A DNA stretch of 64,000 bases from Alphaproteobacteria bacterium (GCA_963666705.2 CAXXKO010000025.1:160652-224651); one strand, 5' to 3'; counted from the first letter of the stretch, positions 32,146 through 51,292 are shown. Program-made: numbers and translations. Notes: generated by a model not told the origin, from the letters alone.

Positions 32146-32925
32146 CTAGTCGAGGTCGGGCATCATATAGTTGAGCGCAAGACGCCCGCCGTCGGCGTAG
32201 ATGGTCTGGCCCGTGAGATAGCTCGCGTCGTCGGAGGCGAGGAAGGCGGCGAGGGCGGCCATCTCCTCGGGCCGGGCGGCGCGGCGCAGGGGCGTGCGCA
32301 GCGCGATGTTGCGGCGGATGTCCGGCTGGCCCTCCAACACCTCCTCCAGCATGTCGGTGAGAGTCGGCCCGGGCGCTATGCCGACGACCCTGATGCCGTA
32401 ATCGGCGAGGGAGATGGCCATAACCTTGGTGAGCTGCACCACCGCCCCCTTGCTGGCCGGATAGGGCACCTGGCCGTGGTTGACCATCATGGCGTTGGTG
32501 GACGCGATGTTGATGATGACCCCGCCATTGCCGAGGTCGACCATGTGCCGCGCCGCCGCCTGGCCGGTAAGGAAGGTGCCCTTGACGTTGATGGCCATGA
32601 CGCGGTCGAAATCCTCTTCCGTCACATCGAAGAAATCGGCGTCGTGGACGATCCCGGCATTGGGGATGCAGATATCGAGGGAGCCGAAGGCCGCCACGGC
32701 CGCGTCCATCAGGGCCACGACCTCGGCCTTCCTGGTCACGTCGCAATGGCGGTAGATGGCCTGGCCGCCCAGGGCCTCGAGCTCGGCAACGGCCGCCGCC
32801 CCCTTCTCGTCCTGGATGTCGCCGAGTGCTATGCGCGCGCCCTCGGCGACGAAGCGCCGCGCGTAGGCGATGCCGATGCCTTGCACGCCGCCGGTGATGA
32901 CGGCGGTTCTGCCTTCGAGCTTCAT
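32146..32925 (-). CDS. SDR-family oxidoreductase (paralog of 28200-28976)
   Basis: MKLEGRTAVITGGVQGIGIAYARRF...YPASKGAV...GGRLALNYMMPDLD. Confidence 0.85.
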   Translation of the reverse strand: MKLEGRTAVITGGVQGIGIAYARRFVAEGARIALGDIQDEKGAAAVAELEALGGQAIYRHCDVTRKAEVVALMDAAVAAFGSLDICIPNAGIVHDADFFDVTEEDFDRVMAINVKGTFLTGQAAARHMVDLGNGGVIINIASTNAMMVNHGQVPYPASKGAVVQLTKVMAISLADYGIRVVGIAPGPTLTDMLEEVLEGQPDIRRNIALRTPLRRAARPEEMAALAAFLASDDASYLTGQTIYADGGRLALNYMMPDLD

Positions 32926-32935
32926 AGTTGGTCCC

Positions 32936-34840
32936 CTATTCCGCGGCCGCCGCGTAGCCGATGCCCTTCAGCGCCTCGGTGATCTCACCCAGGATGGCGG
33001 GGTCGTCGATGGTGGCGGGCGCCTTGTAGTCCTGGGAATCGGCGATCTTCTGCATGGTGCCGCGCAGGATCTTGCCAGAGCGCGTCTTGGGCAGGCGCTG
33101 GACCACAGTCGCCGTCTTGAAGGCGGCCACCGGGCCGATGCGCCCGCGCACGAGCTTGACCACCTCGGCCACGATCTCCTCGTCGGGCCGGTTCACATCC
33201 GCCTTCAGCACCAGGAAGCCCAGGGGCACCTGGCCCTTCATGGCGTCGGCAACGCCGATGACGGCGCATTCGGCCACGTCCGGGTGGGAAGCCAGCACTT
33301 CCTCCATCCCGCCGGTCGAGAGCCGGTGCCCGGCCACGTTGATGACGTCGTCGGTGCGGGTCATGATGTAGATGTAGCCGTCCTCGTCGAAATAGCCTGC
33401 ATCACCCGTCTTGTAATGGCCGGGATAATCCTCGAGGTAGGAGCTTACGTAGCGGTCGTCCGCACCCCACAGGGTCGGCAGGCACCCAGGCGGCAGGGGC
33501 AGCTTGACCACAATGGCGCCGATGTCGCCCGGTTTCACGGGCTCACACTTCTCGTCGAGCACATGGATGTCGTAGCCTGGCACGGGCTTGGTGGGCGAGC
33601 CGTGCTTGACCGGCAGCATGCCGAGGCCGACGCAGTTGGCCGCCATGGGCCAGCCCGATTCGGTCTGCCACCAGTGGTCGATCACCGGCACCTTCAGGTG
33701 CGCTTCCGCCCATTTGAGGGTGTCGGGGTCCGAGCGCTCCCCGGCCAGGAACAGAGTGCGGAAATCGGAGAGGTCGTGGGCGGCGATGAACTTGCCGTCG
33801 GGGTCCTCCTTGCGGATGGCGCGGAAGGCGGTGGGCGCAGTGAAGAGCGCCGCCACCTTGTGCTGGGAGATGATGCGCCAGAAGACGCCGGCATCGGGCG
33901 TGCCAACGGGCTTGCCCTCGAACATGATGCTGGTGTTGCCGTGGAAGAGCGGGGCGTAGACGATGTAGGAGTGGCCCACCACCCAGCCCACGTCAGAGGC
34001 CGCCCAGAAAACCTCTCCCGGGTCCACGTCGTAGACGTTCTTCATACTCCAATTGAGTGCCACCAGGTGCCCGCCATTGTCGTGGATGACGCCCTTGGGC
34101 TCGCCCGTGGTGCCGGAGGTATAGAGGATATAGAGGGGGTCCGTGGCGAGGACGGGCACGCAGTCGCGCGGGCTGGCGGCGGCCACCGCATCGCCCCAAT
34201 CGGTGTCGCGGCCGGGGATCAGGGTGGCGTGGGCCATGGGGCGCTTGAGGACGATGCAGTGCTCGACCTTGTGGCGCGCCAGCTCTATCGCGCCATCGAG
34301 CAGGGGCTTGTATTCGACGATGCGCCCGGGCTCGACGCCGCAGGACGCGCTGACGATGACCTTGGGCTGGCAATCGTCGATACGCACGGCAAGCTCGTTG
34401 GCGGCGAAGCCGCCGAAGACCACGGAATGGACGGCGCCCAGGCGCGCGCAGGCATACATGGCGATCATCGCCTCGGGCACCATGGGCATGTAGACGATCA
34501 CCCGGTCGCCCTTGCCCACGCCGCGGTCGGCGAGCGCGCCGGCGAAGAGGGCAACGGCGTCGCGCAGCTCAGCATAGGTAAAGCTGCTGATCGTGTCCGT
34601 GACGGCGCTGTCGTGGATGAGGGCGGCCTGGTCGCCCCGGCCGCCGTCCACGTGCCGATCGAGGGCGTTGTGGCAGGTGTTGGTCTGGGCACCCACGAAC
34701 CAGCGGTAGAAGGGCGGCCTCGAATCGTCGAGCACCCGGTCCCAGCGCCGGGTCCAGTCGATGGCCTCCGCCGCCTCGGCCCAGAACGCCTCGGGCTCCT
34801 CAATCGATTTCCTGTAGGCTTCGTCGTACCGGCTCGTCAT
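32936..34840 (-). CDS. prpE: Propionate-CoA ligase-like acyl-CoA synthetase (AMP-forming)
   Basis: 634 aa. The N-terminus ...YRKSIEEPEAFWAEAAEAIDW...PPFYRWFVGAQTNTCHNALDRH and VIVYMPMVPEAMIAMYACARLGAVHSVVFGGFA closely parallel E. coli PrpE as I recall it. YTSGTTGEPKG AMP-binding motif. Confidence 0.75.
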   Translation of the reverse strand: MTSRYDEAYRKSIEEPEAFWAEAAEAIDWTRRWDRVLDDSRPPFYRWFVGAQTNTCHNALDRHVDGGRGDQAALIHDSAVTDTISSFTYAELRDAVALFAGALADRGVGKGDRVIVYMPMVPEAMIAMYACARLGAVHSVVFGGFAANELAVRIDDCQPKVIVSASCGVEPGRIVEYKPLLDGAIELARHKVEHCIVLKRPMAHATLIPGRDTDWGDAVAAASPRDCVPVLATDPLYILYTSGTTGEPKGVIHDNGGHLVALNWSMKNVYDVDPGEVFWAASDVGWVVGHSYIVYAPLFHGNTSIMFEGKPVGTPDAGVFWRIISQHKVAALFTAPTAFRAIRKEDPDGKFIAAHDLSDFRTLFLAGERSDPDTLKWAEAHLKVPVIDHWWQTESGWPMAANCVGLGMLPVKHGSPTKPVPGYDIHVLDEKCEPVKPGDIGAIVVKLPLPPGCLPTLWGADDRYVSSYLEDYPGHYKTGDAGYFDEDGYIYIMTRTDDVINVAGHRLSTGGMEEVLASHPDVAECAVIGVADAMKGQVPLGFLVLKADVNRPDEEIVAEVVKLVRGRIGPVAAFKTATVVQRLPKTRSGKILRGTMQKIADSQDYKAPATIDDPAILGEITEALKGIGYAAAAE

Positions 34841-34919
34841 CGCCGCACCCTCCCTCGGCGCGCCCAGCCGCGCGTCACACAGGGATTATCACGCCGGGCG
34901 GTGGTTTTCAAAAGCCGCG

Positions 34920-36651
34920 TTAGGCCGCGCCGCGCCGGGCGGCGGTGGCCGCCGCGTCCACCTCCGCGGAGCCGTCCATGAGGACGACGCCGAAAAGCGC
35001 CGCAGCCGCCTCGGCCGTGTAGTAGCCGCGCCGCACGTCGCGCGCGACGAGGGTGGGCTCGCGCGCGAAGGGGTCGCCGAAGCCGCCGCCGCCCGGGGTC
35101 GAGACACGCACGGAATCTCCCGCCTCGAGCTTGATGCCCTGGTCCTTGGAAAGGTGGGGCGGGACGTAGGCGTCTTCGCCGCGGTGGATCACGACCTTGT
35201 TGGCCCCGCCCTTGGCGCCACCGAGGGCGCCATTGGGCCCTTCGCGGCCGTGGTCCATGACCATGGATGCCTGCGCCGTGCCGCGCCGTATCGTCACACG
35301 GTAGTTGACGCCGAAGCCGCCGCGGTGCTTCCCCGCGCCGCCCGAACCCTCGTGCAGGGAATACTCGTCGAACAGCACGGGGTAGCGCTGCTCCATGACC
35401 TCGATGGGCGTGGTCTTGGAGATGCCGATGGTCGAGCAACCGTTGGTCAGGCCGTCGCCCGCGGTGGAGCCGCCATAGCCGCCGCCCGAGATCACGTACA
35501 TGACGTATGCGCGCCCCTTCTGGGGGTCGTGCCCGCCGAGCGCGAAATTGCCCGAGGTTCCGGCCGGGGCGGCGAACAGCACATCGGGGATGGCGGGGGC
35601 GAGGGCATCGAACACCGCCTCGGCAATGCGCTGGCTGACCTCCGCCGCGCAGCCCGAAACCGGGCGTGGGTATTCGGCGTAGAGGTAAGGTGCCCACGGG
35701 ATCGGTGATGTGCAGGGGCTCGAATGTCCCGGCGTTGATCGGCACCTCGGGGAAGATGTGCTTGATGGCCAGGTAAATGGACGAGCGGGTGGTGGCGATG
35801 ACGCTGTTCATGGGCCCGAGGCAGGGCGGGCTCGACCCCGACATGTCGAAATGGAGGTCCGTGCCCTGCTTCTCGATGCGCATGGCGATGTGGAGGGGGC
35901 GGTCCACCACGCCGTCGGAATCGATCCTGGCCGCGCCGTGATAGGTGCCGTCGGGGATGGTGGCGATGCGGGCGCGCATCTGCTGGGCCGCGCGGGCGCG
36001 CAGCTCGACGATGCAGGCATCGACCGTCTCGGCCCCGTAGCGCATCAGCAGGGCGTCGAGGCGCTTCTCGCCCACCAGGAGGGCCGAGGCCTGGGCCTTG
36101 ATATCGCCGATGCGCTGGTCGGCGATGCGGATGTTGGAGAGGATGATCGACAGGATCTCCTCGTTCATTTCGCCCTCGCGGTAGAGGCGCACGGGCGGCA
36201 GGCGCAGCCCCTCCTGCTCGACCTCGGTGGCGTTGGCGGAGAAGCCGCCCGGCACGGCGCCGCCCGTATCGGGCCAGTGCCCGGTGTTGGCGAGCCAGCA
36301 GTAAAGCGCCCCGCGATGGAAAAAGGGACGGTAGAAGCGCACGTCCATCAGGTGGGTGCCGCCCAGATAGGGGTCGTTGGCGATGAACACGTCGCCCGGG
36401 CGCACGTCCTTGACCCGTGCAATCAGCTCCCGCGTACCGAACTGCATGGTGCCGACGAAGACCGGCAGGCCGAGGTCGCCCTGGGCGATCAGATCGCCCG
36501 TGTCCTTGTGATAGATGCCGTCCGAACGGTCGAGCGCCTCGGAGATCACGGGGCTGAAGGCGGCGCGGACGAAGGCCAGGTCCATCTCGTTGCAGACCTG
36601 GATCAGGCCGCTCTGAATCACGGCCAGGGTGACGGGATCGATGTCGCTCAT
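34920..36651 (-). pseudogene. hyuB: Hydantoinase B/oxoprolinase-family protein, frameshifted
   Basis: MSDIDPVTLAVIQSGL...FEPLHITDPVGT is in the frame of ORF 34837..36984. The minus strand then reads GGCACCTTACCTCTACGCC. Deleting one base (plus-strand t at ~35686) gives GTFLYAEYPRPVSGCAAEVSQRIAEAVFDALAPAIPDV, which joins ORF 34920..35615. Confidence 0.75.
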
Positions 36652-38687
36652 GCGCCTATCTCGATGATGAGGTTGCCGAGGGGGTCGAGCGCGACCCGGT
36701 TGCCGGGCTCGACAATCGTGGTGCAGTCGAGTTGGGTGATGATCGCCGGCCCGCAGAAGCTGGCCGAGAGGGGCAGGCGGCCGCGGTCGTAGACCGGCGT
36801 CTCGCGCCAATCGCCCGGAAACCAGACGCGGCGGGTGCCGGCGCGCGCCTCCTCTAGGCTCTCCGCCTGCTCGCGGCCGGCGAGGGCGGCGAGTGGGACG
36901 GGCGGGCGGCGGCCGATGGCGGCCGTGTGCAGGTTCACGAGCACCGCGCGGATCTCCGGCAGCTCGACGGCGAAGCGGTCCCAATAGGCGGCCTCGAACG
37001 CCGCCTGAAGGCCCGCGACCGTAACGGCCACTCCGGGGATGGGCACGGTCAGCATATGGGTCTGGCCCTCGAACTGCATGTCGGCGAAGTGGAGGAAATC
37101 GATGCCCTCGACCGCCACGCCCTCGCGCCCGATCACTTGGCGGCCCTCGGCGGCCTGGGCGGCGAGGATATCGCGGGCGAGCGCGATATCGAGGGCGCGG
37201 AGCGGCGTGTTGACCGTGTTCACGAAGTCATGGCGCAGGTCGGCGGCGACACAGCCGATGGCGTTGGTGATGCCGGGCCGCGCCGGGATCATGACCCTGG
37301 GAATCGCGAGCTCGCGCGCGAGCGCCGCCGCGTGCATGGGCCCGGCCCCGCCGAAGGCGAAGAGGGTGAAGTCGCGCGGATCGTGGCCGCGGGCGAGCGA
37401 GACCATGCGGATGGCCCCCGCCATGGCGTTGTTGCCGATCTCCAGCACGGCCGCCGCCGCCGCGTCCGCATCGAGGCCGAGGGGATCGCCGACCTCGCGC
37501 GTGAGCGCGCCGCGCACGGATTCGAGCGTCACCGGGCTCTCGACCGAAAGCAGGCCACCCGGATCGAGGCGGCCGAGCACCAGGTTGGCGTCCGTCATGG
37601 TCGGCCGCGTCCCACCTCGGCCGTAGCAGATCGGCCCCGGTGCCGCGCCCGCGCTCTCAGGGCCGACCTGGAGCATACCGGCCGGGTTGATGAAGGCGAT
37701 GGAGCCGCCGCCCGCGCCGATGGTGTGGACATCGACCATGGGGACGTGGATGGGCATGCCGTATTCGAGCTCCAGCTCCGATGTCACCTGGGGCACGCCG
37801 TCGCGCACCAGGCCCACGTCGGAGCTGGTGCCGCCCATGTCGTAGGTGATGACCTGGCTGGTGCCGGCGGCGGCGGCCGTGGCGGCGGCGGCCATGACGC
37901 CGGAGGCGGGGCCGGACATGACCGTGTTCACGGCCGCCTCGGCGACGATGCGCGAGGACATGCTGCCGCCGTTGCCCTGCATGACCAGGAGGTCGTGGGC
38001 GAACCCCCTCTCCGTCAGCTCGGACTGGAGGCGCTCGATATAGCGGTGCAGGACCGGCTGAATCGCCGCGTTGACGGCGGCCGTGGTGCCGCGCTCGTAC
38101 TCCCGGTATTCCGAGAGGATCTCGTGCCCGGCCGTGATGTAGGCGTTGGGCCAGACGGCGGCCGCGATCGCCTTCGCGCGCAGCTCGTGGGCCGGGTTGC
38201 GGTAAGCGTGGAGGAAATGGATGACGAGCGCCTCGCAGCCCTCGGCCAGCAATGCGCGCGCGGCCTGGGCCACCGCATCCTCGTCGAGCGGGGTGACGAC
38301 CGCGCCATCGGCGTCCATGCGCTCAGGCACTTCCAGACGCAGCTCGCGCGGGATCAGGGGCTCGAACCGGCCGCGCAGGCCGTAGGGTGTCGGCCGGGTG
38401 CGGCGGCCAAGCTCCAGCACGTCGCGGAAGCCGCGCGTGGTGATGAGGCCGACCCGGCTGACCTTCCTCTCGAGGAGGGCGTTGGTGGTGGTCGTAGTGC
38501 CATGGCTGATATTCGCCACCTCGGCGAGGCGGGCGCCCACGCCCTCGAGTGCCGCGAGCACGCCATAGGCCTGGTTCTCGACCGTGGTCGGCACCTTGGC
38601 GACACGCACCTCGCCCGTCCCCGGCTCGATCGACACGAGGTCGGTAAAAGTGCCGCCCACGTCCACGCCGATGATCGTCTCCGTCAA
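36648..38687 (-). CDS. hyuA: Hydantoinase A/oxoprolinase-family protein
   Basis: 679 aa. IIGVDVGGTFTDLV, ITYDMGGTSSDV. ATGA overlap with hyuB. Confidence 0.88.
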   Translation of the reverse strand: MTETIIGVDVGGTFTDLVSIEPGTGEVRVAKVPTTVENQAYGVLAALEGVGARLAEVANISHGTTTTTNALLERKVSRVGLITTRGFRDVLELGRRTRPTPYGLRGRFEPLIPRELRLEVPERMDADGAVVTPLDEDAVAQAARALLAEGCEALVIHFLHAYRNPAHELRAKAIAAAVWPNAYITAGHEILSEYREYERGTTAAVNAAIQPVLHRYIERLQSELTERGFAHDLLVMQGNGGSMSSRIVAEAAVNTVMSGPASGVMAAAATAAAAGTSQVITYDMGGTSSDVGLVRDGVPQVTSELELEYGMPIHVPMVDVHTIGAGGGSIAFINPAGMLQVGPESAGAAPGPICYGRGGTRPTMTDANLVLGRLDPGGLLSVESPVTLESVRGALTREVGDPLGLDADAAAAAVLEIGNNAMAGAIRMVSLARGHDPRDFTLFAFGGAGPMHAAALARELAIPRVMIPARPGITNAIGCVAADLRHDFVNTVNTPLRALDIALARDILAAQAAEGRQVIGREGVAVEGIDFLHFADMQFEGQTHMLTVPIPGVAVTVAGLQAAFEAAYWDRFAVELPEIRAVLVNLHTAAIGRRPPVPLAALAGREQAESLEEARAGTRRVWFPGDWRETPVYDRGRLPLSASFCGPAIITQLDCTTIVEPGNRVALDPLGNLIIEIGA

Positions 38688-38702: not shown

Positions 38703-38925
38703 CTCGACGAGCCGACCAGTCGGCTCGTCTTACGCTCAGGCGCCGCTAAAGCTCCTCGCTGTTCGCTCGGGCGCCGTGTCGGGCTTGCCGGCGAGCCGAT
38801 CATCGGCTCGCCGGTTGCTCCCCATTGATCGCTCAAGCGCCGCTAAGGCTCCTCGTTGTTCGCTCGGGCGCCCTGTCGGGCTTGCCGGCGAGCCGATCAT
38901 CGGCTCGCCAGATAATCCCCGGAAT
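38703..38925. repeat. Intergenic hairpin repeat family 2: leader hairpin plus two ~83-bp tandem units
   Basis: GACGAGCCGACCAGTCGGCTCGTC, then two units (38731-38812, 38827-38909) of ...CGCTCA(G/A)GCGCCGCTAA(A/G)GCTCCTCG.TGTTCGCTCGGGCGCC.TGTCGGGCTTGCCGGCGAGCCGATCATCGGCTCGCC. Related copies at 63124-63256. Confidence 0.8.
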
Positions 38926-38942: not shown

Positions 38943-39644
38943 TCACACCGTCAAATAGGCCGCGCGCACGGCTTCGTCGGCTTCCAGCTCCGCCATGGTG
39001 CCGGTATAGCGGATGCGGCCTTTCTCGATGATCGACGCGCGGTCGGCCACCGCGCGGGCGAAATGCAGGTTCTGCTCCGAGAGCAGGATGGTCATGCCTT
39101 CGGCCTTCAATTCGCGGATGGTGCGCGCCATCCGCTGCACGATGACCGGCGCCAGTCCCTCCGACGGCTCGTCGAGGAGGATGACGCGTGGGTTGCCCAT
39201 GAGGGTGCGGGCGATGGTCAGCATCTGTTGTTCGCCGCCCGAGGTGTGCCCACCGGGCCGGTTCCGCATCTCGGCCAGGTTGGGGAACAGCGCGAACAGG
39301 CGCTCGGGCGTCCAATGGGGGGCGTCCGGGCGCGGCGGCTGGCGGCCGACCTCCAGGTTCTCCATGACCGTGAGGCCGGCGAAGACCCGCCTGTCCTCGG
39401 GCACGTAGCCGAGGCCCGCGCGGCAAATTTCGTGACTCGGCAAGCCGGAGAGCGAGCGGCCGTCGAAGGTGACCTCCCCCGCCGCCGGCCGGACGAGGCC
39501 GATGATGCTCTTGAGGGTGGTCGATTTCCCGGCCCCATTGCGGCCCAGGAGGGCGACGACCTCGCCGCGCGCGACCTCGATGCCGACACCATCGAGGATG
39601 CGGGCGCGACCGTAGAAGGTCTCGAGGCCGGCGACCCTAAGCAT
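38943..39644 (-). CDS. livF: Branched-chain amino acid-type ABC transporter ATP-binding protein (LivF-like)
   Basis: 233 aa. GRNGAGKSTT, SGGEQQMLTIAR, LLDEPSEGLAP. Confidence 0.85.
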   Translation of the reverse strand: MLRVAGLETFYGRARILDGVGIEVARGEVVALLGRNGAGKSTTLKSIIGLVRPAAGEVTFDGRSLSGLPSHEICRAGLGYVPEDRRVFAGLTVMENLEVGRQPPRPDAPHWTPERLFALFPNLAEMRNRPGGHTSGGEQQMLTIARTLMGNPRVILLDEPSEGLAPVIVQRMARTIRELKAEGMTILLSEQNLHFARAVADRASIIEKGRIRYTGTMAELEADEAVRAAYLTV

Positions 39645-40413
39645 GCGCGCCCTCCCCTTCCCCGGCCCCCATGGTGCCAGCGCCGAGGTAGGTCTCCTGG
39701 ACCCGCGCGTTGGCGCGCACCTGGGACGGTGTGCCCTCGGCGATCAGCGCGCCCCGGTCGAGCACGATGATGCGGTCGGCATGGGCGAAGACCACATCCA
39801 TATCGTGCTCCGTGAAGAGGACGCTGATGCCGCGTTCCCGCACGACCTCAGCGACGAGCGCCATCAGGGCCACCCGCTCCCTGGGCGCCATGCCGGCCGT
39901 CGGCTCGTCCATGAGCAGGAGCCGCGGGCGATGGGCGAGGGCCGCAGCCAGCTCGACGCGCTTCAAGTCGCCATAGGCGAGCACGCCGCAGGGCCTGCCC
40001 GCCTGGTCCGCGATCCCCACCTGATCGAGGATCGCAAGCGCCTCGTCGCGGTAAAGGCGCGCGGCCAGGGGCCATACGGCCCAGCTCCGCCAGCGGTGGG
40101 AGAGGAGCGCCATCTGCACGTTCTCGGCCACGGTCATGGAGCCGAATGTGGCCGTGATCTGGAAGGTGCGGCCCACGCCCAGGCGCCAGATGCGGCGCGG
40201 GGAGAGGCCCAGGATGTCCCGGCCCTCGAAGCGGATGCTGCCCGCGTCGGGAGCCAGCTGGCCGCCGAGGACGTTGAAGCAGGTGCTCTTGCCGGCACCG
40301 TTGGGGCCGATCATGGCCAGGAGCTCGCCCGCCGCGAGATCGAAGCCGACGCCGGCCAGGGCATCGTCGCCGCCGAACGCCTTCCTGAGCCCCTCGACCG
40401 CGAGCACGGTCAT
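39637..40413 (-). CDS. livG: Branched-chain amino acid-type ABC transporter ATP-binding protein (LivG-like)
   Basis: ATG at 40413. MTVLAVEGLRKAFGG...GPNGAGKST...LLMDEPTAGM. Confidence 0.85.
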   Translation of the reverse strand: MTVLAVEGLRKAFGGDDALAGVGFDLAAGELLAMIGPNGAGKSTCFNVLGGQLAPDAGSIRFEGRDILGLSPRRIWRLGVGRTFQITATFGSMTVAENVQMALLSHRWRSWAVWPLAARLYRDEALAILDQVGIADQAGRPCGVLAYGDLKRVELAAALAHRPRLLLMDEPTAGMAPRERVALMALVAEVVRERGISVLFTEHDMDVVFAHADRIIVLDRGALIAEGTPSQVRANARVQETYLGAGTMGAGEGEGAHA

Positions 40414-42251: not shown

Positions 42252-42283
42252 CGGTCCCGCCCTCCGGTCATGGGCCGAGCCCG

Positions 42284-42477
42284 CCTCACCCTTCGACAAG
42301 CTCAGGGTGAGGCACAGCGAGACCCGCAAATAGGTATGTTTACAACCGCGTGACGGCCCTCATGCTGAGCCTGTCGAAGTATGAGGGCAAGCACCGGCGT
42401 TGCGGGGTGAAGCATGGAAAAACTCATGCTCGAACGGACGAGGAGGCCCTCACGACCCGCCTGTCAAAGCATGAGGG
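42284..42477. repeat. Three REP-like hairpin repeats (same family as 28117-28173)
   Basis: CCTCACCCTTCGACAAGCTCAGGGTGAGG (42284-42312), CCCTCATGCTGAGCCTGTCGAAGTATGAGGG (42357-42387), and a degenerate CCCTCACGACCCGCCTGTCAAAGCATGAGGG (42447-42477). Confidence 0.75.
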
Positions 42478-42491
42478 CCGCCTTGCCGTCT

Positions 42492-43697
42492 TCAGTCCGC
42501 CGGCCGCATCTCACGCACGACGGCGTCGGGTGGCAGGTAGTTGGCGCCGTCGGCATAGAACCAATCGACCATCTTACCCTTGCCGTCCACGAGTGCCGTG
42601 TGTCCGACATAGGCGCCCATGGTGGACTGGTGGTCGATCGCCCTGAAGGTAATCGGGCCGAACGGCGAATCGAAGCTCACGCCCTCGGCGGCGGCGATCA
42701 TCTTGTCGGTGTCGGTGGAACCGGCCTCGATGAGGATGGCCTCGATGGCCTTGACGAGGTTGTAGCCGACGATACTGCCGAGTCGCGGCGATTCGTTGTA
42801 CTTCGCCTGATAGGCGGCAACGAATTCCTTGTGCGCGACCGTTTCGATCTGCGCCCAGGGGTAGCCCGTGACGATCCAGCCCACGGGCGCCTCGTCGCCG
42901 AGGGGATCAAGGTACTCGGGCTCACCGGTCAAAAGGCTCGCCACGTCGCGGTTCTCGAACAGGCCGCGCAGCTTGCCCTCGCGCACGAACTTGGCCAGGT
43001 CGCTGCCGAAAAGCACGTTGTAGATGGCATCGGGCTTGGCCGCCGCGAGGGCCTGGACGGTCGCCCCGGCATCGATCTTGAAGAGGGCCGGCCATTGCTC
43101 GTCCACGAACTCGACGTCGGGGCGCAGCGCGCGCAGGAGGTCCTTGAAGTCCGTGACCGCGTCCTGGCCATACTTGTAATTGGGCGCCACTGTGGCCCAG
43201 CGCTTGGCGGGCAGCTTCGCCGCCTCCTGGGCTAGCATGCCGGCCTGCATGTAGGTCGAGGGGCGCAGACGGAAGGTGTAGCGGTTGCCCTTGGACCAGA
43301 CGATGGCATCGCTCAAGGGCTCACCGGCGACGAACAGCACCCGGCGCTGCTTGGCGAGCTCGGTCACGGCGAGGCCGATGTTCGAGAAAAGGGTGCCGGC
43401 GATCAGGTCCACCTGGTCGTTGGACACCAGCTCCTCGGCGATCTTGACGGCGGTGCCGGGCTTGCCCTCGTCGTCGCGGCTGATGAACTCGAGCGGCCGG
43501 CCGAGCACGCCGCCCGCGGCGTTGATCTCCTCGAGCGCGAGCTGCCAGCCGTTGCGGTAGGGCAATGTGAAGGCCGGCAGCCGGCTGTAGCTGTTGACCT
43601 CGCCGACCTTGATGGACTCGGCGGCCCGGCCGAGGCCCGGCGCCGTCGCGGCGAGGGCGAAGGCCACCGCGGCCAGAAGGCTTCGTCTTGTGAACAT
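42492..43697 (-). CDS. Liv/Amide-type periplasmic substrate-binding protein
   Basis: ATG at 43697. MFTRRSLLAAVAFALAATAPGLGRA signal peptide, then a type-I PBP body (IKVGEVNSYSRL...). Confidence 0.8.
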   Translation of the reverse strand: MFTRRSLLAAVAFALAATAPGLGRAAESIKVGEVNSYSRLPAFTLPYRNGWQLALEEINAAGGVLGRPLEFISRDDEGKPGTAVKIAEELVSNDQVDLIAGTLFSNIGLAVTELAKQRRVLFVAGEPLSDAIVWSKGNRYTFRLRPSTYMQAGMLAQEAAKLPAKRWATVAPNYKYGQDAVTDFKDLLRALRPDVEFVDEQWPALFKIDAGATVQALAAAKPDAIYNVLFGSDLAKFVREGKLRGLFENRDVASLLTGEPEYLDPLGDEAPVGWIVTGYPWAQIETVAHKEFVAAYQAKYNESPRLGSIVGYNLVKAIEAILIEAGSTDTDKMIAAAEGVSFDSPFGPITFRAIDHQSTMGAYVGHTALVDGKGKMVDWFYADGANYLPPDAVVREMRPAD

Positions 43698-43744: not shown

Positions 43745-44614
43745 TCAGGCCGCCCGTCCCTCGATCTTCGGCGGTTCCTTCTCCACAGCCACGCGGACCC
43801 GGCCCTGGAGCGCTAAATAGGCACCTTGGATCAAGCCGCAGGCCCGCATCCCCTCGGCCGCCCGGGCGCCCGCGGCGAGCGCCGCATCGACCGCCGACGG
43901 CGGCAGAAGCCCGACTCCGACGGTGACGAGTTGCCCGCCCAGGTCGGTATCGTCCCGGAGCGTGTCGGCCGGTCGGCGTTCGATGGCTGGAAAGTCCACA
44001 TCGACGGCGTTGGCGATCAGCGTCGCCGCCGCGTCGGCATCGGCCGCGCACCGTGCCAGCACCGTCACCGCGTCGGCAATGCCGAGCGAGAGGGAGCGGC
44101 CGCGCCAGCCCGAGGTGGTGAGCCCGCGCACGGGCATCCCGTGGGTGAGCGCCACCCGCACGTCGAGCGCCGGCGAATCCTGTTCCTCGACCACCGCTGC
44201 TGTAAGGCTCTGGCCCGGCGCCAGGTGGAAGGCGATATCGCCGCCGTTATTGACGTAGGCGCGCTCGAGGCCGCCGCCGGCCGCGAGCGCCGCCAGGACC
44301 TCGTCGGCGACGGCGCCCGCCACCGCCGCCATGGGGGTGATGAAGACTGTACGGTGGGGCCAGACCGCCGTGGCCATGCGCCGCGCCACCGAGCCGGCGA
44401 CGGGCGGCATCGCCGCCCCCACGGACCGGCGCAGGATATCCAGCTCCTCGACCAGCTCGGCGAGCAGGCCTTCGAAGCGCCGGGCGGCGCGGGCATAGGC
44501 GCGGTGAACCTCGCCTGGTGGCCCAAAAGCCTCGGCCACGATATCGATGGGCCCGTGGTGCAGATGCAGGCGGCGGCCGTCCGGCAACAGGGCCACTTGC
44601 GCGGTGCCGGTCAC
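43745..44614 (-). CDS. UPF0280/ApbE-like family protein
   Basis: GTG start overlapping the upstream stop (GTGA). VTGTAQVALLPDGRRLHLHHGPIDIV...ITPMAAVAGAVADEV...GIADAVTVLA. Confidence 0.6.
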   Translation of the reverse strand: MTGTAQVALLPDGRRLHLHHGPIDIVAEAFGPPGEVHRAYARAARRFEGLLAELVEELDILRRSVGAAMPPVAGSVARRMATAVWPHRTVFITPMAAVAGAVADEVLAALAAGGGLERAYVNNGGDIAFHLAPGQSLTAAVVEEQDSPALDVRVALTHGMPVRGLTTSGWRGRSLSLGIADAVTVLARCAADADAAATLIANAVDVDFPAIERRPADTLRDDTDLGGQLVTVGVGLLPPSAVDAALAAGARAAEGMRACGLIQGAYLALQGRVRVAVEKEPPKIEGRAA

Positions 44615-46068
44615 GACGGCCGCCCGCCGGCGGGGCCGATAGGCCAGGGGTTCGCGGGCGACCAGGGCAGGCGCTCGAGGCGCTCGCCGGCGAGCACGGA
44701 CTCGAGTGCGACGATGCTGCCCACATGGCCGCCGAGGGCGGCGAAATCCGCCCGCGCCATGGTGAACTCGATGGGCGCGACGAGGGCGGGCGTGGGCACG
44801 TAGCCGAAGGAGCTCTCCGGCATGCGCGTTACGTCCACCATGATGGTGATGCCGCCGCCCGGCCAGACATAGACGGGCGCGCCGCCGCAGGTGACGTGGG
44901 TCAGCGCCTCGCGGACCGAGCGGGTCAGCTTGACCGGGTTCTCGGTCACGCCCGCGCGCAGGGAGCCGCCGGCCCCGGCCATGAAGAGGACGCTCGAAAG
45001 TGCCGGCTCGCAGTTCTCGGCGATGCGCGCGACGACCTTCCCGATCGCCGCCGGCATCGCCGCCTCGCGCGGTATAAGCGCTTCGTCGAGCTCGTACCAG
45101 GCCGCGTCCTCGCCTGTGGTCGAAACCATCAGCAGGCGCATGCCGGGCCAGGCCTTCTTGGGGTCGATCTTCTCGATGATCTCGAGCGGGTCGGTGACGT
45201 CCGTGCCGCCCCAGCCCGCACCGGGCTCGGCGACCTGGAAGTAGCGGCCGGGCGTCGATCGCCGCCCGCGCACGCGCACGCCCGCGGGCCGCATGTCGAG
45301 GAAGCGGCCGGCCTGGTGCTCGGTCAGGACGCCCGTGATGTGGTCGTCGACCACGATAACCTCGTCCGTATGGCCATACCATTGCTTGGCGAACATGCCG
45401 ATGGTGGCGGAGCCGCAGCCGACCCGCATGCGCTCCTCACGCTCGTCATCGACGATGGGGGGGCTGCCCGCCTGGATCACCACCTTGGCGCCACCCTCCA
45501 CCCGGACTTCCACCGGCCCGCAGCCGCAGAGGTCGAGCATGGCCTGGCAGGTTATATTGCCCTCGCGCTTGGAGCCGCCGGTCAGGTGGCGCACGCCGCC
45601 CAGGGCCAGCATCTGGGAGCCGTACTCGGCCGTGGTGACGTGGCCGATCTGCTCGCCCTCGCACATGACGGCCGCCTGCTCGGGGCCGAGATAGCGGTCG
45701 GTGTCGATCTTCACCTTGAGGCCGCAGTAGCTGAAGATGCCCTCCGAGACCACGGTGACCATATCCACGCCCTCGGCCTCGCTGGCGACGATGAAGGGGG
45801 CGGGCTTGTAATCGGGATAGGTGGTGCCAGAGCCGATGCCGGTCACGAAGCTCTCGGCCGGCTTGACGACCTCGCCGTCCCAGCCCTCGCTGCCTTTGAG
45901 GAAGGGCACGACGCGCTCGGCGCGCTCCGCCACCACCAGGGGATCGACGCGCGTCAGTACCCCATCCGTGTTGGCATAGCGGTCGCAGGCACCGATCTTG
46001 CCCGGGCGGATGCGGCACAGGACCGGGCAGGCGTCGCAGCGGATGGCCTCGGCCTTGGGTTCAGTCAT
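44611..46068 (-). CDS. Fe-S protein of the family usually annotated 6-hydroxynicotinate reductase (Hnr-like)
   Basis: ATG at 46068, preceded by GGGAGG. MTEPKAEAIRCDACPVLCRIRPGKIGACDRYAN (Cys cluster). 485 aa. Family name from memory, not searched. Confidence 0.5.
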   Translation of the reverse strand: MTEPKAEAIRCDACPVLCRIRPGKIGACDRYANTDGVLTRVDPLVVAERAERVVPFLKGSEGWDGEVVKPAESFVTGIGSGTTYPDYKPAPFIVASEAEGVDMVTVVSEGIFSYCGLKVKIDTDRYLGPEQAAVMCEGEQIGHVTTAEYGSQMLALGGVRHLTGGSKREGNITCQAMLDLCGCGPVEVRVEGGAKVVIQAGSPPIVDDEREERMRVGCGSATIGMFAKQWYGHTDEVIVVDDHITGVLTEHQAGRFLDMRPAGVRVRGRRSTPGRYFQVAEPGAGWGGTDVTDPLEIIEKIDPKKAWPGMRLLMVSTTGEDAAWYELDEALIPREAAMPAAIGKVVARIAENCEPALSSVLFMAGAGGSLRAGVTENPVKLTRSVREALTHVTCGGAPVYVWPGGGITIMVDVTRMPESSFGYVPTPALVAPIEFTMARADFAALGGHVGSIVALESVLAGERLERLPWSPANPWPIGPAGGRPS

Positions 46069-46080: not shown

Positions 46081-46342
46081 AAGTACCCACAATCATGAGT
46101 CCGTGCCTCATACGACGGCGCCCCGAGGTTTCGGCTAGGAGCGCGGCGCGCCGTGATGCCGGGGCATCACTAGCGGCGCGCGACGACGACCGGGGGCCTC
46201 GGGGCGCCGCCCTGCGGGTCGCTTTTCCCGCCCCTCGGGGCGTCGGGGACGCTTGACGATGCCCCGGCATCGCCGGCGCCCCCCCTCCTGCCGAGGAGAC
46301 GGGAAAAGCGATCGTATGGGGCACGGACTCATGATTGTGGGT
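46081..46342. mobile_element. MITE-like palindromic element (~266 bp before the IS insertion; its last 4 bp now lie at 47665-47668)
   Basis: 27-bp terminal IR AAGTACCCACAATCATGAGTCCGTGCC (46081-46107). Its reverse complement is 46320-46342 plus ACTT after the IS. Imperfect internal two-fold symmetry (GATGCCGGGGCATC in both halves). No credible ORF. Confidence 0.55.
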
Positions 46343-47655
46343 CACTAGTGTCCGGTTAAAAATCGAATAAATTCAATTGGTTGGTTATTTGCGAAGCGTT
46401 GCATCTGTTTTCGTCTCCCGCAAGTGCTTGATGTATGGGCATTTTCTCGAAGAGGGTCACCGAGAGGATCTGTAACAAAGTGTAGAGCGAGGCGTCCAGG
46501 TCGAGGCGCTTCTTGACGATGGCGACGAGGACGTAGACCGAGACGGCAATCCAGATCTGCGTCTTCACCGCGTTCTCCGACGTGCCGTAGAACTGCTTGA
46601 TCCGAAGATGCTGCTTGATCCACTTGAAGAAGAGTTCCACCTGCCAGCGGCTTTTGTAGAGCGCGCAGATGGTGGCGGCCGGAAGCGAGAAGTTGTTGGT
46701 GATGAAGACCAGCGTCTTGCCGGACTCGGGGTCCTTGAAGCGGATGCGCCGCAGAAGTTCGGGGTAATCCTGACGGGTGTAGAAGCCGTCCAGGGAGATG
46801 GTCTGGTCGCAAATGATGCCGGTCGAGCGATCCGTCGGCGCCGAATAGACGCGATGAGCATCGATGTTCGACTTGGCACGCGTGACGAAGAAGGCCCCGG
46901 CTTGGTGCAACACATAAAGGCGGGCAAAGTCGACGTAGCCACGATCCACGACGTAGATGGCTCCGGCTTCCGGCAAGAGCATATCGAGGGCATGAACGTC
47001 GTGCAGCTTGCCATCCGAGATGTGGATAAAACTCGGAATGTTGCCCCGCAGGTCGAGCAGCGTGTGCATCTTCACCGCCGCCTTGGTGGTGCGGAAGTGC
47101 GCCCACGGAAAGACCGACAGGCACAGAGCGATGGTCGTCGAGTCCAGGGCGTAGACGGTATTGGTCAGGTCCAACCCCAGTTCTTCGTCGACGTACAGCG
47201 TCCTCGCCTGGGTGATGAGCCGCTGGGCCAACGCCGCATGGATACGCCAGTCGCGCCTTTCGTTGGCATCGGCCAGCGTCGAGCGCCGGACCGGCTGGCG
47301 GAAGCCCATGTGATAGAGTTTCGATGCGTGGACCGAGAGGCAGGTCTCGATGTCGCGCAGGCTTTCCCGGTAGGTCAGCTGGGCGAAGGCCATGGACCGG
47401 TATTGCTCGGCGCAGGAAAGCGTCCGGACCCGGTGATCGCCGCCATACCGGTCGACGATCCGCGTGAAAGTAGTCCATGGCAGGAAGTCCATGAGCTGAG
47501 CGAACAGGGTCTTGCCGGTGTTCATGAGCATCTCCTCGGAGAAACTCCGAAAAGTGCTCCATCCAATTCAAATCGACACCATGCATTTTCGCTTCAAACC
47601 CCGCAGAAATCCTGGCTCTCAAAGCCAGCACCGCTCAGTTAACCGGACAGCAGTG
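46343..47655 (-). mobile_element. IS4-family insertion sequence, copy 2
   Basis: Same sequence and ORF set as 8098-9410, offset 38245. Its own 9-bp TSD ATTGTGGGT at 46334-46342 and 47656-47664. Confidence 0.9.
46356..47531 (-). CDS. IS4-family DDE transposase (copy 2)
   Basis: 391-aa translation matching 8111..9286. Confidence 0.9.
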   Translation of the reverse strand: MLMNTGKTLFAQLMDFLPWTTFTRIVDRYGGDHRVRTLSCAEQYRSMAFAQLTYRESLRDIETCLSVHASKLYHMGFRQPVRRSTLADANERRDWRIHAALAQRLITQARTLYVDEELGLDLTNTVYALDSTTIALCLSVFPWAHFRTTKAAVKMHTLLDLRGNIPSFIHISDGKLHDVHALDMLLPEAGAIYVVDRGYVDFARLYVLHQAGAFFVTRAKSNIDAHRVYSAPTDRSTGIICDQTISLDGFYTRQDYPELLRRIRFKDPESGKTLVFITNNFSLPAATICALYKSRWQVELFFKWIKQHLRIKQFYGTSENAVKTQIWIAVSVYVLVAIVKKRLDLDASLYTLLQILSVTLFEKMPIHQALAGDENRCNASQITNQLNLFDF

Positions 47656-50416
47656 ATTGTGGGTACTTAGCCAGGATCGCGGCACGCAGGCGGTGGGGCA
47701 GGACCGGGACGGAGGTGATGCGCACGCCGGTCGCATGCCGGATGGCGCCGAGGATGGCGGGCGCCGTCGGCACCAGCCCCGGCTCGCCCACGCCCTTGGC
47801 GCCGAAGGGGCCAAGGGGATCGGGCTCCTCCACGATGATGGTCTCGATCTCCGGCACGTCGCCGAAGGTCGGGATCAGGTAGTCGTGCAGGTTCTCGGTC
47901 CGGCCCGGCACGTACTCCTCCATCAGCGCGAAGCCGAGCCCCTGGGCGATGCCGCCATGGATCTGGCCCTCGACCTGCACCGGATTGATGGCGCGCCCGA
48001 CATCGTGGGCGGCGACGATGCGAAGCACGCGTGTGGTGCCGAGCGCGGTATCCACCTCGACCAGAGCGAGCTGCGCGGCGAAGCCGTAGCATGCGTAGGG
48101 CCGGCCCTGCCCCTTCTCGTCGAGGGGGGTGGCGGGGGGGTCGAAATTCCCCTCGCCGGTCAGCACCATGCCGTCCTGGCCCGGCACGAGGGTGGCGAGA
48201 TCGACCTCGCGCCGCACCTCGCCCTCGGTCACGCGCACGTGGCGGCCGGCGAATTCGATGGCGCCGCCCTCACCCACGTTCGCCTGGCGCAGGAGCCGCG
48301 CGCGCAAGTCCGCGGCCGCGAGGGCGACCGCCCGGCCCGAGACAAAGGTCTGGCGCGAGGCGGAGGTTTTGCCGGCGTCGGACGTCAAGTCCGTATCCGC
48401 CGTCACGAGCCGTATGTCGGCGATCGCGACACCGAGCGAATCGGCGCAGATCTGCGCGAGGATGGTGTTCGAGCCCTGGCCGATGTCCATGGCGCCCGAG
48501 AACAGCGTGACGCCGCCCGCCGCGTCGAGGCCGACGCGCATGGTCGAGGGGTTGGAGAGGCCGGTATTGCCGATGCCATACCACATGCAGCCGATACCGA
48601 CCCCGCGCCGCCGTGTGCCGTTCGCGGCGTTGTGGCCGGCCGCCTCGTCACGCAAGGCCCGCCAGCGCGGGCGCAATGCCTCGAGGCATTGGACGAGCCC
48701 GACGCTCGCCTCGAGGGTCTGGCCCGTGGCCGTGGCGTCACCCGTCCGGATGGCGTTCAAGAGGCGGAACTCGAGCTGGTCCATGCCGAGCTTCGCCGCG
48801 AGGTCGTCCATCAGCGTTTCGTGGGCGATGGCGGCCTGGGGTACGCCGAAGCCGCGGAAGGCGCCGCAGGGCGGCGCATTGGTGTGCCAGGCCCGCCCGC
48901 GCGCGGCCAGGTGGGGCACGCGGTAGGGGCCGCTCGCGTGGACCGGCACGCGCCCCGCCACCGTCGGCCCCCAGGAGGCATAGGCGCCGGTATCGAAATC
49001 GGCCAGCGCCTCGACCGCCGTGAGCCGCCCGTCCGCGTCGCAGCCGAAGCGCGCGGTGATGCGCGAGGGGTGGCGCTTGGTGGAGGACGCCATGCTCTCG
49101 GGCCGGTGATAGACGCAGGCGACCGGCCGGTCCACCAGCCAGGCGGCGAGGGCCACCACGGGCTGGACCGAGAGGTCGAGTTTGCTGCCGAAGCCGCCGC
49201 CGCAGACGGTGGCGGCGATTCGCACCCGGTCCGCCGGCAGGGCCATGATGTTGGCGACCTCGTCGCGGTGCATGTGGGGCGCCTGGGTGGTGGTGTGGAT
49301 CTCCACGCGCTCGCCCACCCGCACGGCCCAGCCGGCCTCGGGCTCGATATAGGCGTGTTCGACGAAGGTGGTCTCGAACTTGCCTTCGGCCATGTGCGCG
49401 GCGGCGGTGAGGGCCTGCCCGGCATCGCCCTTGATGACGCCGCCGTCGATCAGCAGGTTGTCCGGCTTGTCGTCGAATAGGCGCGGCGGGTCCGCGGCCA
49501 TGGCGGCGTCGAGGCCGCGCACGGGATCGAGCGGCTCGTAGGCGATCGGTACCGCGGAATCCGCGAACGCCTCGACCGCGGCGCGCTCGCCCACGAGGGC
49601 CAGCACCGCCTGGCCCTGGTAACGGACGACGCCGTCGGCGAGCACGGGCTGGTCCTTGATGTGGGGGTAGATGCCGAAGCCGTTGAAGGGCACGTCGGCC
49701 GCCGTCAGCACGCGGACGAGCCCAGGATGATCGGCGAGGAAAGGGCCAAAGTCGGCAATCGTGAAGCGTGCGAAGGGGTGCGGGGAGCGAACGACCCGCA
49801 GCCACAGCGCGTTCGCCGGTATGGCATCGGCGCCATAGGATTCCGCCCCCGTCAACTTGGGGATGCCGTCCACCTTGGCGATGCGCGCACCCACGGCGGC
49901 GCCAGCGGGCGCCGCGACCGGCTGGGCGGTGCCCGCCACGTCGAGCACCGCCTCGACGATCTTGCGGTAGCCCGTACAACGGCAGAGGACGCCGCCCAAC
50001 GCATCCTCGACCTCGGCCGCCGCCGGTGCGGGGTTGCGCGCCAGAAGCTCGCTCGCCGCCATCAGCATGCCGGGCGTGCAGATGCCGCACTAGGCCGCGC
50101 CGTGGTGGTGGAAGGCGGCCTGGAGGGGGCAGAGCCGCCCGTCCCCGGCAAGGCCCTCGACCGTCGTCACCCGCCGCCCTTCCGCTTGGCCCAGGGCCAC
50201 GAGACAGGCGCAGACCTGCGCCCCGTCGAGGAGCACGGTGCAGGCGCCGCAGTCGCCCGCGTTGCAGCCGACCTTGGTGCCGGTGAGCCCCAGGCTATCG
50301 CGCAGGGCATCGGCGAGGCGGGTCATCGGTGGCGCGGCCACGGCCACGGCGCGGCCGTTGACCGTCAGGCGCACGGCCGCCGCCGGCGCCAGGGACCAGG
50401 CGGCCGCGTCGCTCAT
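47639..50416 (-). pseudogene. Fused [2Fe-2S]/molybdopterin-binding subunit of a xanthine-dehydrogenase-family hydroxylase, with an in-frame TAG
   Basis: MSDAAAW...GCNAGDCGACTVLLDG...LQAAFHHHGAA, then TAG (50090-50092), then CGICTPGMLMAASELL...GVLCRCTGYRKI, then a ~770-aa MoCo-binding body, all in one frame. The 3' end is rewritten by IS4 copy 2 (KYPQS-stop becomes KYPQSLLSG-stop). Confidence 0.75.
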
Positions 50417-51248
50417 GCCATCGCCCCCAATTCGTCGAGGCACCGCCGGACGAGGGTGAGTGCCGCGTCCTGGCGATAGGCGGACGACGCGCGGACATCG
50501 TCGATGGGTGAGAGCGGTGCCAGGTGCGCCGCTTGGGCCGCGGCGCCCAGGCCGTCATCGGCCGGTCGGCCGACGAGCGCCGCTTCGAGGGCCGGCAGGC
50601 GCCGGGCCACGGGGGCGCAGGCGCCGACCGCGACCCGCGCACACGGCCGTCCGCGCCGGCCTCGAGCGCGGCGGCGACCATGACGATGGAGATCACCAGA
50701 TACTTGCGCGTGCCCAATTTAAGGAAGTGACCGCGCGCGCCGCCCGGGGGCGCCGGCACCAGGACGGCGGTCACGAGCTGGTCGGGCCGGCGCACCGTCC
50801 GCCGATTGCCGGTGATGAAGCGATCGAGCGCGACCCGCTCGATTCCGGCCGACGAAGACAGCTCCACCGCCGCATCGAGGGTGAGGAGCGGCGGCGCCCC
50901 GTCCGCGGCCGGCGAGGCATTGCAGAGGTTGCCGCAGACGGTGCCGGCATTCTGGATCTGCATCCCGCCGACCTCGCGCGCCGCGCGCTTCAGGCCATCG
51001 AAGGCGGGCGGCAGATCCGCGCGCAACAGCTCGGACCAGGTGGCGAGGGCGCCGATACGCCACTGGTCGTCGCGCAATTCGATGCCCCGCAGGGCGTCGA
51101 GCCCGCTCAGGTCGAGGATATCGTCGGCGGGCGCGTGGCCGACCCGCGCGGGGTAATAGTCGGTGCCGCCGGCAAGGATCGTCGGGCGCCCGTCGCGCAG
51201 GGCATCGAGCGCCTGTGAGACGGATCTGGGACGCAAGTAATCGCCCAT
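50413..51248 (-). pseudogene. FAD-binding subunit (CoxM/XdhB-like) of the molybdenum hydroxylase, frameshifted
   Basis: MGDYLRPRSVSQALDAL...ILAGGTDYY...GTVCGNLCNASPAADG...ISIVMVAAALEAGADGR in one frame. CARVAVGACAPVARRLPALEAAL...DDVRASSAYRQDAAL...LGAMA in another (ORF 50413..50610). The switch is at ~50640-50652. ATGA overlap with the next gene. Confidence 0.7.
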
Positions 51249-51274
51249 TCGCCGCTCTCTCCCCCTTCCGAAAC

Positions 51275-51292
51275 TCGTTCGTATACTAACGA
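51275..51292. promoter_or_regulatory. Near-palindromic 18-mer, candidate MarR operator
   Basis: TCGTTCGTATACTAACGA, 16 of 18 positions self-complementary. Lies 27 bp upstream of the FAD-subunit ATG and 33 bp downstream of the marR-like stop. Confidence 0.4.

Follow-up and report, generated by a model that had tools for sequence, protein, structure and literature searches.

A probable reductive-type nicotinate cluster with hydantoinase-family genes in place of enamidase, very likely non-functional in one alphaproteobacterial strain

A 64,000-nucleotide stretch of DNA from an Alphaproteobacteria bacterium (GCA_963666705.2, CAXXKO010000025.1:160652-224651), referred to here as the window and numbered throughout from its first letter, carries at positions 32146-51292 a 19-kb gene cluster that lies entirely on the minus strand, and the question raised by this locus is which ring compound its products would degrade, how the ring would be opened, and whether the route still works in this strain. 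A sequence-only reading made earlier had proposed an uncharacterised, partly decayed route for a nicotinate-like N-heterocycle. Nicotinate is a common vitamin (B3) and plant metabolite, and its reductive aerobic breakdown in Alphaproteobacteria has scarcely been studied at the gene level. The locus is interpreted here as a reductive-type nicotinate catabolic cluster in which the hydantoinase A/B pair HydAB replaces enamidase and of which this strain holds a copy that is very likely non-functional; a probability of roughly 0.6 is assigned to this interpretation. Since the G+C content of the window is about 70%, reading frames were set by third-position GC and then checked with Pfam and NCBIfam, and the gene inventory, order, strand and coordinates of the sequence-only reading were recovered in this way.

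The hydroxylase is encoded by two genes, both disrupted here, namely a pseudogene for the flavin adenine dinucleotide (FAD)-binding subunit of a molybdenum (Mo) hydroxylase (NdhF-like; 50413-51248), in which Pfam detected FAD_binding_5 and did not find CO_deh_flav_C, and a gene for a fused 2x[2Fe-2S]-molybdopterin subunit (NdhS/L/M-like; 47639-50416) with the domains Fer2, Fer2_2, Ald_Xan_dh_C and MoCoBD_1/2. According to Pfam they carry the FAD, 2x[2Fe-2S] and molybdenum cofactor (MoCo) modules of a nicotinate hydroxylase of the xanthine-dehydrogenase family, and the Mo domain has its best solved match in the nicotinate dehydrogenase of Eubacterium barkeri (PDB 3HRD, chains L and M, 274 + 239 bits), while the NCBIfam matches of the hydroxylase all remain under their equivalog cut-offs. 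The next cluster gene (44611-46068) is intact and encodes a 485-amino-acid, putative ferredoxin-dependent 6-hydroxynicotinate reductase (Hnr) from a family of more than 8000 homologues, many of which are named 6-hydroxynicotinate reductase by their sources, the best 120 showing 73-100% identity. Identities of 64-78% are maintained across orders of Pseudomonadota and into metagenome-assembled genomes of Acidobacteriota, and the Hnr-like proteins share eight invariant cysteines, including those of the N-terminal motif CDACPVLCRIRxGKxGACDRY (CxxCxxxC...C). No Pfam domain was assigned to the Hnr-like protein, a sequence search of the PDB returned no match, and its AlphaFold2 model, built from an 18-sequence alignment, was unusable (mean predicted local distance difference test score 42, predicted template-modelling score 0.39). 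A gene for a 289-amino-acid UPF0280/ApbE-like protein (43745-44614; Pfam PF27030 AbpE_bact; NCBIfam PRK04334.1-2, 368 bits against a cut-off of 290) follows hnr here and in nearly every locus compared.

A conserved proteobacterial cluster of Ndh, Hnr, enamidase, an ATP-binding cassette (ABC) transporter and two unknowns is described in PMC3511419 (citing Alhapel 2006), which assigns it to the nicotinate-degrading Bradyrhizobiaceae strain SG-6C, gives 42% identity between E. barkeri Hnr and a proteobacterial Hnr homologue, and mentions intermediates of the 1,4,5,6-tetrahydro-6-oxonicotinate (THON) type reported in Azorhizobium. The core of the window cluster is this known proteobacterial reductive nicotinate cluster, linked to the THON route of E. 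barkeri and Azorhizobium. The assignment to a nicotinate-type N-heterocycle cluster therefore stands on the Pfam and NCBIfam matches, the naming within the Hnr family, the 3HRD match and the described proteobacterial cluster, and hydroxylation followed by ring reduction was the right logic; what does not stand is the label of an uncharacterised route, as MarR, Ndh, Hnr, UPF0280 and the ABC transporter were already described as a core (PMC3511419) and only lactam opening by HydAB seems undescribed.

Compared with the THON-route clusters of E. barkeri and proteobacteria, the window has in common an Ndh-like Mo hydroxylase, Hnr directly downstream, a Liv-type transporter and UPF0280, all in the same order and tightly coupled, whereas it lacks enamidase and the second conserved unknown, a PF06684 gene, and carries a HydA/HydB pair in the place of enamidase. 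The window moreover encodes its FeS and Mo subunits as one fused polypeptide, whereas NdhS, NdhL and NdhM are separate in E. barkeri. The nic cluster of Pseudomonas putida (NicAB, NicC, NicX and the MarR-type NicR) likewise hydroxylates nicotinate at C6 with a Mo hydroxylase and likewise has a MarR-family repressor, but it follows an aerobic maleamate route with a monooxygenase and a ring-cleaving dioxygenase and without Hnr, and the genes of that route are not in the window cluster.

The evidence on ring opening comes from gene neighbourhoods. The window HydA, a hydantoinase/oxoprolinase A subunit, is encoded by an intact gene for 679 amino acids (36648-38687; Pfam Hydant_A_N, Hydantoinase_A and Hydant_A_C), and the hydantoinase B subunit HydB by a frameshifted pseudogene (34920-36651) whose Pfam match is split over two frames. 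Eighty Hnr loci from species-representative genomes were scored for cluster genes, and the neighbouring open reading frames (ORFs) were clustered without prior assumptions. Two alternative neighbours of Hnr were obtained, either a 399-amino-acid amidohydrolase, which is an enamidase orthologue (PDB 2VUN, E = 1.6e-113), or orthologues of the window HydA and HydB at 55-78% identity. In other genomes, 46 Hnr loci had 8 kb or more of flank on each side; of these, 16 had HydAB only, 18 enamidase only, none both and 12 neither (Fisher p = 6e-5), and over all 83 Hnr loci compared the counts were 23 with HydAB, 25 with enamidase and 0 with both. Isolates of the HydAB type include Desertibaculum subflavum SYSU D60015 and Falsiroseomonas oryziterrae NPKOSM-4, and those of the enamidase type Bosea sp. 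Leaf344 and Pelagibius litoralis DSM 21314. When an enamidase orthologue served as the tblastn query, neither the 64-kb window nor any HydAB-type locus gave a match. Loci with HydAB and loci with enamidase are mixed across a neighbour-joining tree of Hnr, so they do not reflect one ancient split, and HydAB is joined to Ndh-Hnr-AbpE in at least four gene orders, the stop codon of one gene frequently overlapping the start of the next: Ndh-Hnr-AbpE-HydAB; transporter-HydAB-Ndh-Hnr-AbpE; Ndh-Hnr-AbpE-transporter-HydAB; and a convergent arrangement. The reciprocal test started from 80 metagenome loci of HydB orthologues (73-81% identity), of which 18 had enough flank to be informative; Ndh, Hnr or AbpE genes were observed in 17 of these 18, and enamidase in 0 of the 80. 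The linkage of hydantoinase to Hnr that had been read from the single window thus holds widely, and the contrary case, in which the two would belong to unrelated, separately conserved operons, is contradicted by the same 17 of 18 loci.

The sequence of the window pair points to an ATP-dependent lactamase. The solved structures nearest to HydA are N-methylhydantoinase 7HK5 (E = 1e-134) and 6YRA (E = 3e-116), the latter of which we take to be the caprolactamase CapAB of P. jessenii, its chains being called 5-oxoprolinase and hydantoinase by the depositors; the best solved matches of HydA and HydB span E = 1e-134 to 3e-87, and carboxylases score far lower, acetone and acetophenone carboxylases being distant. 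HydA with its N, central and C domains and a separate HydB, with no third carboxylase subunit, have the lactamase-type architecture, and caprolactamase alpha ranks first for HydA in NCBIfam (507 bits against a cut-off of 1000, all equivalog cut-offs being missed). Like CapAB (6YRA), N-methylhydantoinase (7HK5) and 5-oxoprolinase, the window enzyme comprises two subunits with full HydA and HydB domains; unlike them, it stands in the context of a pyridine-ring pathway, and the cyclic enamide proposed as its substrate is not known for the family. HydAB fills the same cluster slot as the E. barkeri enamidase (Ena, 2VUN), and the two never occur together in one Hnr locus, yet they differ in fold and mechanism, enamidase being a metal-dependent amidohydrolase that needs no ATP. 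The opening of 5- to 7-membered lactams with ATP by the hydantoinase A/B family is reported in PMC8453981 and PMC11033972, and in the literature searched nothing was found that links hydantoinase/oxoprolinase genes to 6-hydroxynicotinate metabolism or describes a subtype with HydAB for enamidase.

Because HydAB never accompanies enamidase (16 against 18 loci, 0 with both) and 17 of 18 HydB loci hold Ndh or Hnr, HydAB is most likely an ATP-dependent THON lactamase acting in the place of enamidase. The subtype is widespread and apparently undescribed. The broader proposal, that a dedicated ATP-dependent THON lactamase has displaced enamidase in a large share of the surveyed Ndh-Hnr loci of Pseudomonadota (16/46), probably several times independently, is put forward at even odds. 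If true, it would give the oxoprolinase/caprolactamase family a new physiological substrate and role and nicotinate catabolism a new, energy-consuming variant. The pattern of HydAB versus enamidase yields a sharp prediction of enzyme function, an ATP-dependent lactamase acting on THON; it would correct the annotation of thousands of 'hydantoinase/oxoprolinase' genes, and enzymes of this family are wanted for the mild hydrolysis of stable lactams that serve as nylon monomers.

The proposed sequence of events would begin with MarR, which probably represses the cluster from a palindrome upstream of the first structural gene, and with a Liv-type ABC system, which would take up the substrate. The three-cofactor Mo hydroxylase, composed of the FAD subunit and the fused 2Fe2S-MoCo subunit, would convert nicotinate to 6-hydroxynicotinate, which the Hnr-like iron-sulfur protein, perhaps matured by the UPF0280/ApbE-like protein, would reduce to the cyclic enamide THON. 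HydAB would then hydrolyse the six-membered lactam bond of THON with ATP in the stead of enamidase, and the resulting enamine would collapse to 2-formylglutarate and ammonium, equal to the net enamidase reaction. Later steps, probably through glutarate and glutaryl-CoA, would be encoded elsewhere or perhaps in part by the coenzyme A (CoA) ligase and the short-chain dehydrogenase/reductase (SDR) at the end of the cluster; the lower pathway of Azorhizobium reportedly runs through these same two intermediates. A RidA-type protein was considered as a helper in enamine hydrolysis and rejected; both the window and the related locus L001 have a RidA gene close to the cluster, and the RidA of L001 has no homologue in the other loci.

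The UPF0280/ApbE-like protein may be a putative maturation factor of Hnr. The E. barkeri Hnr is reported to carry a covalently bound flavin, which makes such a role attractive. An ApbE-type flavinylation motif was sought in Hnr and rejected, as the family members do not share the acceptor position of a GSAT-like stretch; the idea that the UPF0280/ApbE-like protein installs a covalent flavin on Hnr stays speculation because no conserved acceptor motif of that type is present. Directly upstream of the hydroxylase genes, a 2-oxoacid:ferredoxin oxidoreductase together with a Pyr_redox_2 protein was observed in two loci (L021, 2129-6414; L026, 291-4595), and a protein of about 1150 amino acids with RP005_N and Pyr_redox_2 domains in three others (L004, 2902-6303; L019; L037). 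These upstream redox proteins are candidates that could plausibly supply low-potential electrons to Hnr in aerobes. PF06684 (AA_synth) genes of about 195 amino acids, one or two in number, were found directly after the UPF0280 gene in most enamidase-type loci (Hnr loci L015-L086, e.g., L052 12424-13589), and none is present in the window; AA_synth is strongly linked to the nicotinate cluster as an uncharacterised component.

Regulation and transport fit around this core. The first cluster gene encodes a 152-amino-acid MarR-family regulator (51326-51784; Pfam MarR/MarR_2), and a MarR gene immediately upstream of the FAD-subunit gene was observed in many related loci. The near-perfect, 18-bp palindrome TCGTTAGTATACGAACGA (51275-51292) lies about 45 nt upstream of the ATG of the FAD gene, and similar palindromes with at most five mismatches occur 20-67 nt upstream of that gene, nearly always where MarR directly precedes it (exceptions, L009 and L074), even where the identity of MarR drops to about 50%. 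This conservation supports the suggestion, already made in the sequence-only reading, that the palindrome is a candidate MarR operator, although a scan of the cluster detected no sigma-70-like promoter consensus. The Liv-type ABC importer (38943-43697, Pfam) consists of a binding protein (42492-43697), a fused LivH/M permease (40410-42251) and two ATPases (39637-40413 and 38943-39644), with orthologues of 55-76% identity in about 30 Hnr loci. The overlapping stop and start codons noted earlier were confirmed for five gene pairs, four of them overlapping by 4 nt (FAD/MoCo, Hnr/AbpE, permease/ATPase1 and HydA/HydB) and one by 8 nt (ATPase1/ATPase2). In the same scan nothing promoter-like was detected and terminator-like sites were no more frequent than expected by chance, so operon boundaries are based on gene spacing, and the Rfam scan of the whole window gave zero matches, hence no riboswitch or other known RNA.

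How far the pathway extends downstream of hydB is the first point on which other explanations compete. The cluster ends with a PrpE/Acs-like acyl-CoA ligase of 634 amino acids (32936-34840; NCBIfam propionate--CoA ligase, 770 bits, under the cut-off of 955) and an SDR of 259 amino acids (32146-32925; Pfam adh_short), and these two genes come after hydB not only in the window but also in L001 and the sister strains. All twelve genes could belong to one pathway, with the PrpE-like ligase activating the ring-opened acid to a CoA ester and the SDR then working on that ester; the co-directional genes, the spacers of 80 nt (hydB-ligase) and 10 nt (ligase-SDR) and the same arrangement in a 95% relative and the sister strains would agree with it. 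A CoA-dependent lower pathway would also fit the CoA-related genes near other HydAB-type loci, as genes for a family-III CoA-transferase, a different AMP-ligase, acyl-CoA dehydrogenases and crotonase-family proteins were found nearby in other loci. Against this, when 163 loci from other organisms were examined, no orthologue of the ligase or SDR at 40% identity or more turned up within 10 kb of Hnr or HydB, and the ligase is nearest in NCBIfam to propionate/acetate-CoA ligases. The single twelve-gene pathway is accordingly held to be doubtful; since ligase and SDR are linked to the cluster only in this lineage, their membership in the pathway is doubtful too, and they are not conserved companions of the cluster. 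They could instead form a lineage-specific lower-pathway module.

The reading of a nicotinate cluster with HydAB for enamidase has several points against it. The window Hnr-like protein is tied to the E. barkeri Hnr through the naming of its family and the 42% identity of a proteobacterial homologue, and THON as the putative HydAB substrate is deduced from gene replacement. In 12 of the 46 full-flank loci neither enzyme is present, so a ring-opening gene can sit elsewhere and HydAB genomes could hold a distant enamidase. Enamidase loci usually have two PF06684 genes and HydAB loci none or one, so the exchange of the two enzymes is not a clean one-for-one replacement. The hydroxylase is only 54-67% identical to that of enamidase-type loci, so a related but different pyridine carboxylate is possible. 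This last point leads to the second competing explanation, in which the HydAB-type cluster degrades another N-heterocycle, such as a pyridine or pyridone carboxylate or a saturated lactam, whose reduced ring is a stable lactam that requires ATP to be opened. The hydroxylase subunits are only 54-70% identical between loci, the equivalog cut-offs missed by the hydroxylase point the same way, and the HydAB family hydrolyses stable 5- to 7-membered lactams according to the two sources named above (PMC8453981, PMC11033972). On the other hand, Hnr is unusually conserved (64-78% identity) in clusters of either type, its tree mixes HydAB with enamidase loci instead of separating two substrate clades, and both kinds of cluster come with the same transporter, UPF0280 and MarR-palindrome. 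A different substrate is thus considered unlikely, and nicotinate is retained.

The state of the cluster in this strain, an organism known only from metagenome contigs, was assessed by aligning it with the intact relative L001 (about 90-95% DNA identity) and with sister strains that are 99.6-99.9% identical. L001, a metagenomic relative with an Hnr 95% identical to that of the window, provided the intact syntenic cluster for which the sequence-only reading had proposed to search. The three gene lesions it had noticed are all present in the sequence. The FAD gene has a net 7-nt deletion (CGGCGCG) near 50635, which puts the C-terminal domain in another frame (the tblastn match is split) and which is missing from L001 and the sister strain L091. 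The FeS-MoCo gene has CAG changed to TAG at 50090-50092, in the Gln codon immediately before the conserved iron-sulfur motif QCGICTPG; a selenocysteine reading of this in-frame stop was rejected, the codon being TAG and replacing one for Gln. The hydB gene has a surplus A at 35686, so that its reading frame is lost after about 322 codons (tblastn); this base is not found in L001, L087, L088 or L089, HydB being intact with 576 amino acids in L001 and L087-L089. In the sister contigs from other samples (L087, L088/L091 and L089), hydB is intact and, where the region is covered, the FAD gene is intact and the 50092 amber codon and the insertion sequence (IS) described below are absent. Since the sister strains lack the three point lesions and the IS4 element, these lesions are strain-specific. 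As hydB and the two hydroxylase genes are disrupted and hydroxylase and hnr are separated by an IS4 element, the nicotinate pathway is, judging from the sequence, very likely non-functional in this strain.

Whether the cluster itself is a target of decay is less clear. Two further 1-nt deletions present only in the window were observed outside the cluster against strains of more than 99.6% identity, one in a dCache/HisKA sensor kinase gene (26199) and one in a gene for a Rieske ring-hydroxylating oxygenase (54436), so disruption, or assembly error, reaches beyond the nicotinate cluster; point lesions number 3 over the 19 kb of the cluster and 2 over roughly 18 kb of flank. In L091 (ERZ28763718 ctg5102), the hydroxylase gene is interrupted by a separate pair of nonsense codons, TAG and TGA (L091 positions 7778 and 8419), at sites other than the window amber, which represent either independent loss of the same gene or systematic base-calling errors. 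It is improbable that the living organism has an intact cluster and that the point lesions arose as long-read metagenome assembly errors. In favour of such errors, the names of the contigs (contig_87, ctg5102) hint at long-read assemblers, a C-homopolymer differs between the window and the near-identical L005, L088/L091 have C-homopolymer frameshifts in the permease and ATPase genes, and window-specific 1-nt frameshifts occur at the two positions outside the cluster. Against them, a 7-nt deletion and a 1.3-kb IS with a 9-bp target duplication are atypical of read errors, the hydB insertion (CCTT-A-CCTC) and the amber substitution lie outside homopolymers, and all lesions are common to two assemblies that differ elsewhere, L005 being a second assembly of nearly the same sequence (3 differences in 21.5 kb) with every lesion. 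Confidence is high in the 7-nt deletion and in the IS insertion, whereas the single-base changes could in principle be errors. The claim that the cluster is being lost therefore stands as far as the lesions are strain-specific, and is weakened by the similar frameshift density in the flanks and by the apparent origin from long-read metagenome assemblies: the cluster is likely decaying in this strain, not clearly beyond general gene erosion and IS activity in the population, and decay specific to the cluster is only partly supported. The window copy thereby offers a small case study of a catabolic cluster broken by an IS, a deletion and a nonsense mutation among strains that are 99.6-99.9% identical.

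Three further features, two inserted elements and a tandem duplication, are additional to those of the sequence-only reading. The element between hydroxylase and hnr is a 1313-bp member of the IS4 family (46343-47655, minus strand), with a transposase gene at 46356-47567 (NCBIfam transpos_IS4_1, 292.6 bits against a cut-off of 115; Pfam DUF4372 and DDE_Tnp_1), imperfect terminal repeats CACTAGTGTCCGGTTAA/CACTGCTGTCCGGTTA of about 16-17 bp and a 9-bp target duplication ATTGTGGGT. It was inserted precisely at the stop codon of the hydroxylase, whose C-terminus is lengthened by 4 codons, and it is not present in L001 or L091. A second, 100% identical copy occupies 8098-9410 and is flanked by a separate 9-bp target duplication, GCCCTGACG, and the DDE transposase, the terminal inverted repeats, the 9-bp duplications and the occurrence in two copies place the cluster element in the IS4 family. 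The DNA around this second copy, at 4-10 kb, is lower in G+C (58-61%) than the roughly 70% of the window and may have been acquired.

The IS4 element splits another insertion in the same spacer, a non-coding inverted-repeat element of about 270 bp (46081-46342, the other end at 47656-47668) with 35-nt near-perfect terminal inverted repeats (AAGTACCCACAATCATGAGTCCGTGCC...), located between the MoCo stop codon and the ribosome-binding site of hnr. It gives the hydroxylase its last five codons and stop codon, is present in L091 (99.7% identical) and absent from L001, where the MoCo gene and hnr share 8 nt, and resembles a miniature inverted-repeat transposable element (MITE); no further copy occurs elsewhere in the window. 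A 97-bp tandem duplication (38733-38920) occupies the spacer between the ATPase genes and hydA, its copies being 91% identical and each containing a perfect hairpin of 11-13 bp (core GGCGAGCCGAT / ATCGGCTCGCC), with CCGGCGAGCCGAT / ATCGGCTCGCCGG as the hairpin in the copy at 38788-38814. The repeat is single-copy in L001, L087 and L091, and the duplicated hairpin unit may be a repetitive extragenic palindromic (REP)-like element or, alternatively, a regulatory site. Just outside the cluster, an element with an IS256-type (Mutator-family) transposase was observed at 29124-30634; the same site is occupied by an IS1595-family element in L087 and L088 and empty in L089, and looks like an insertion hot spot.

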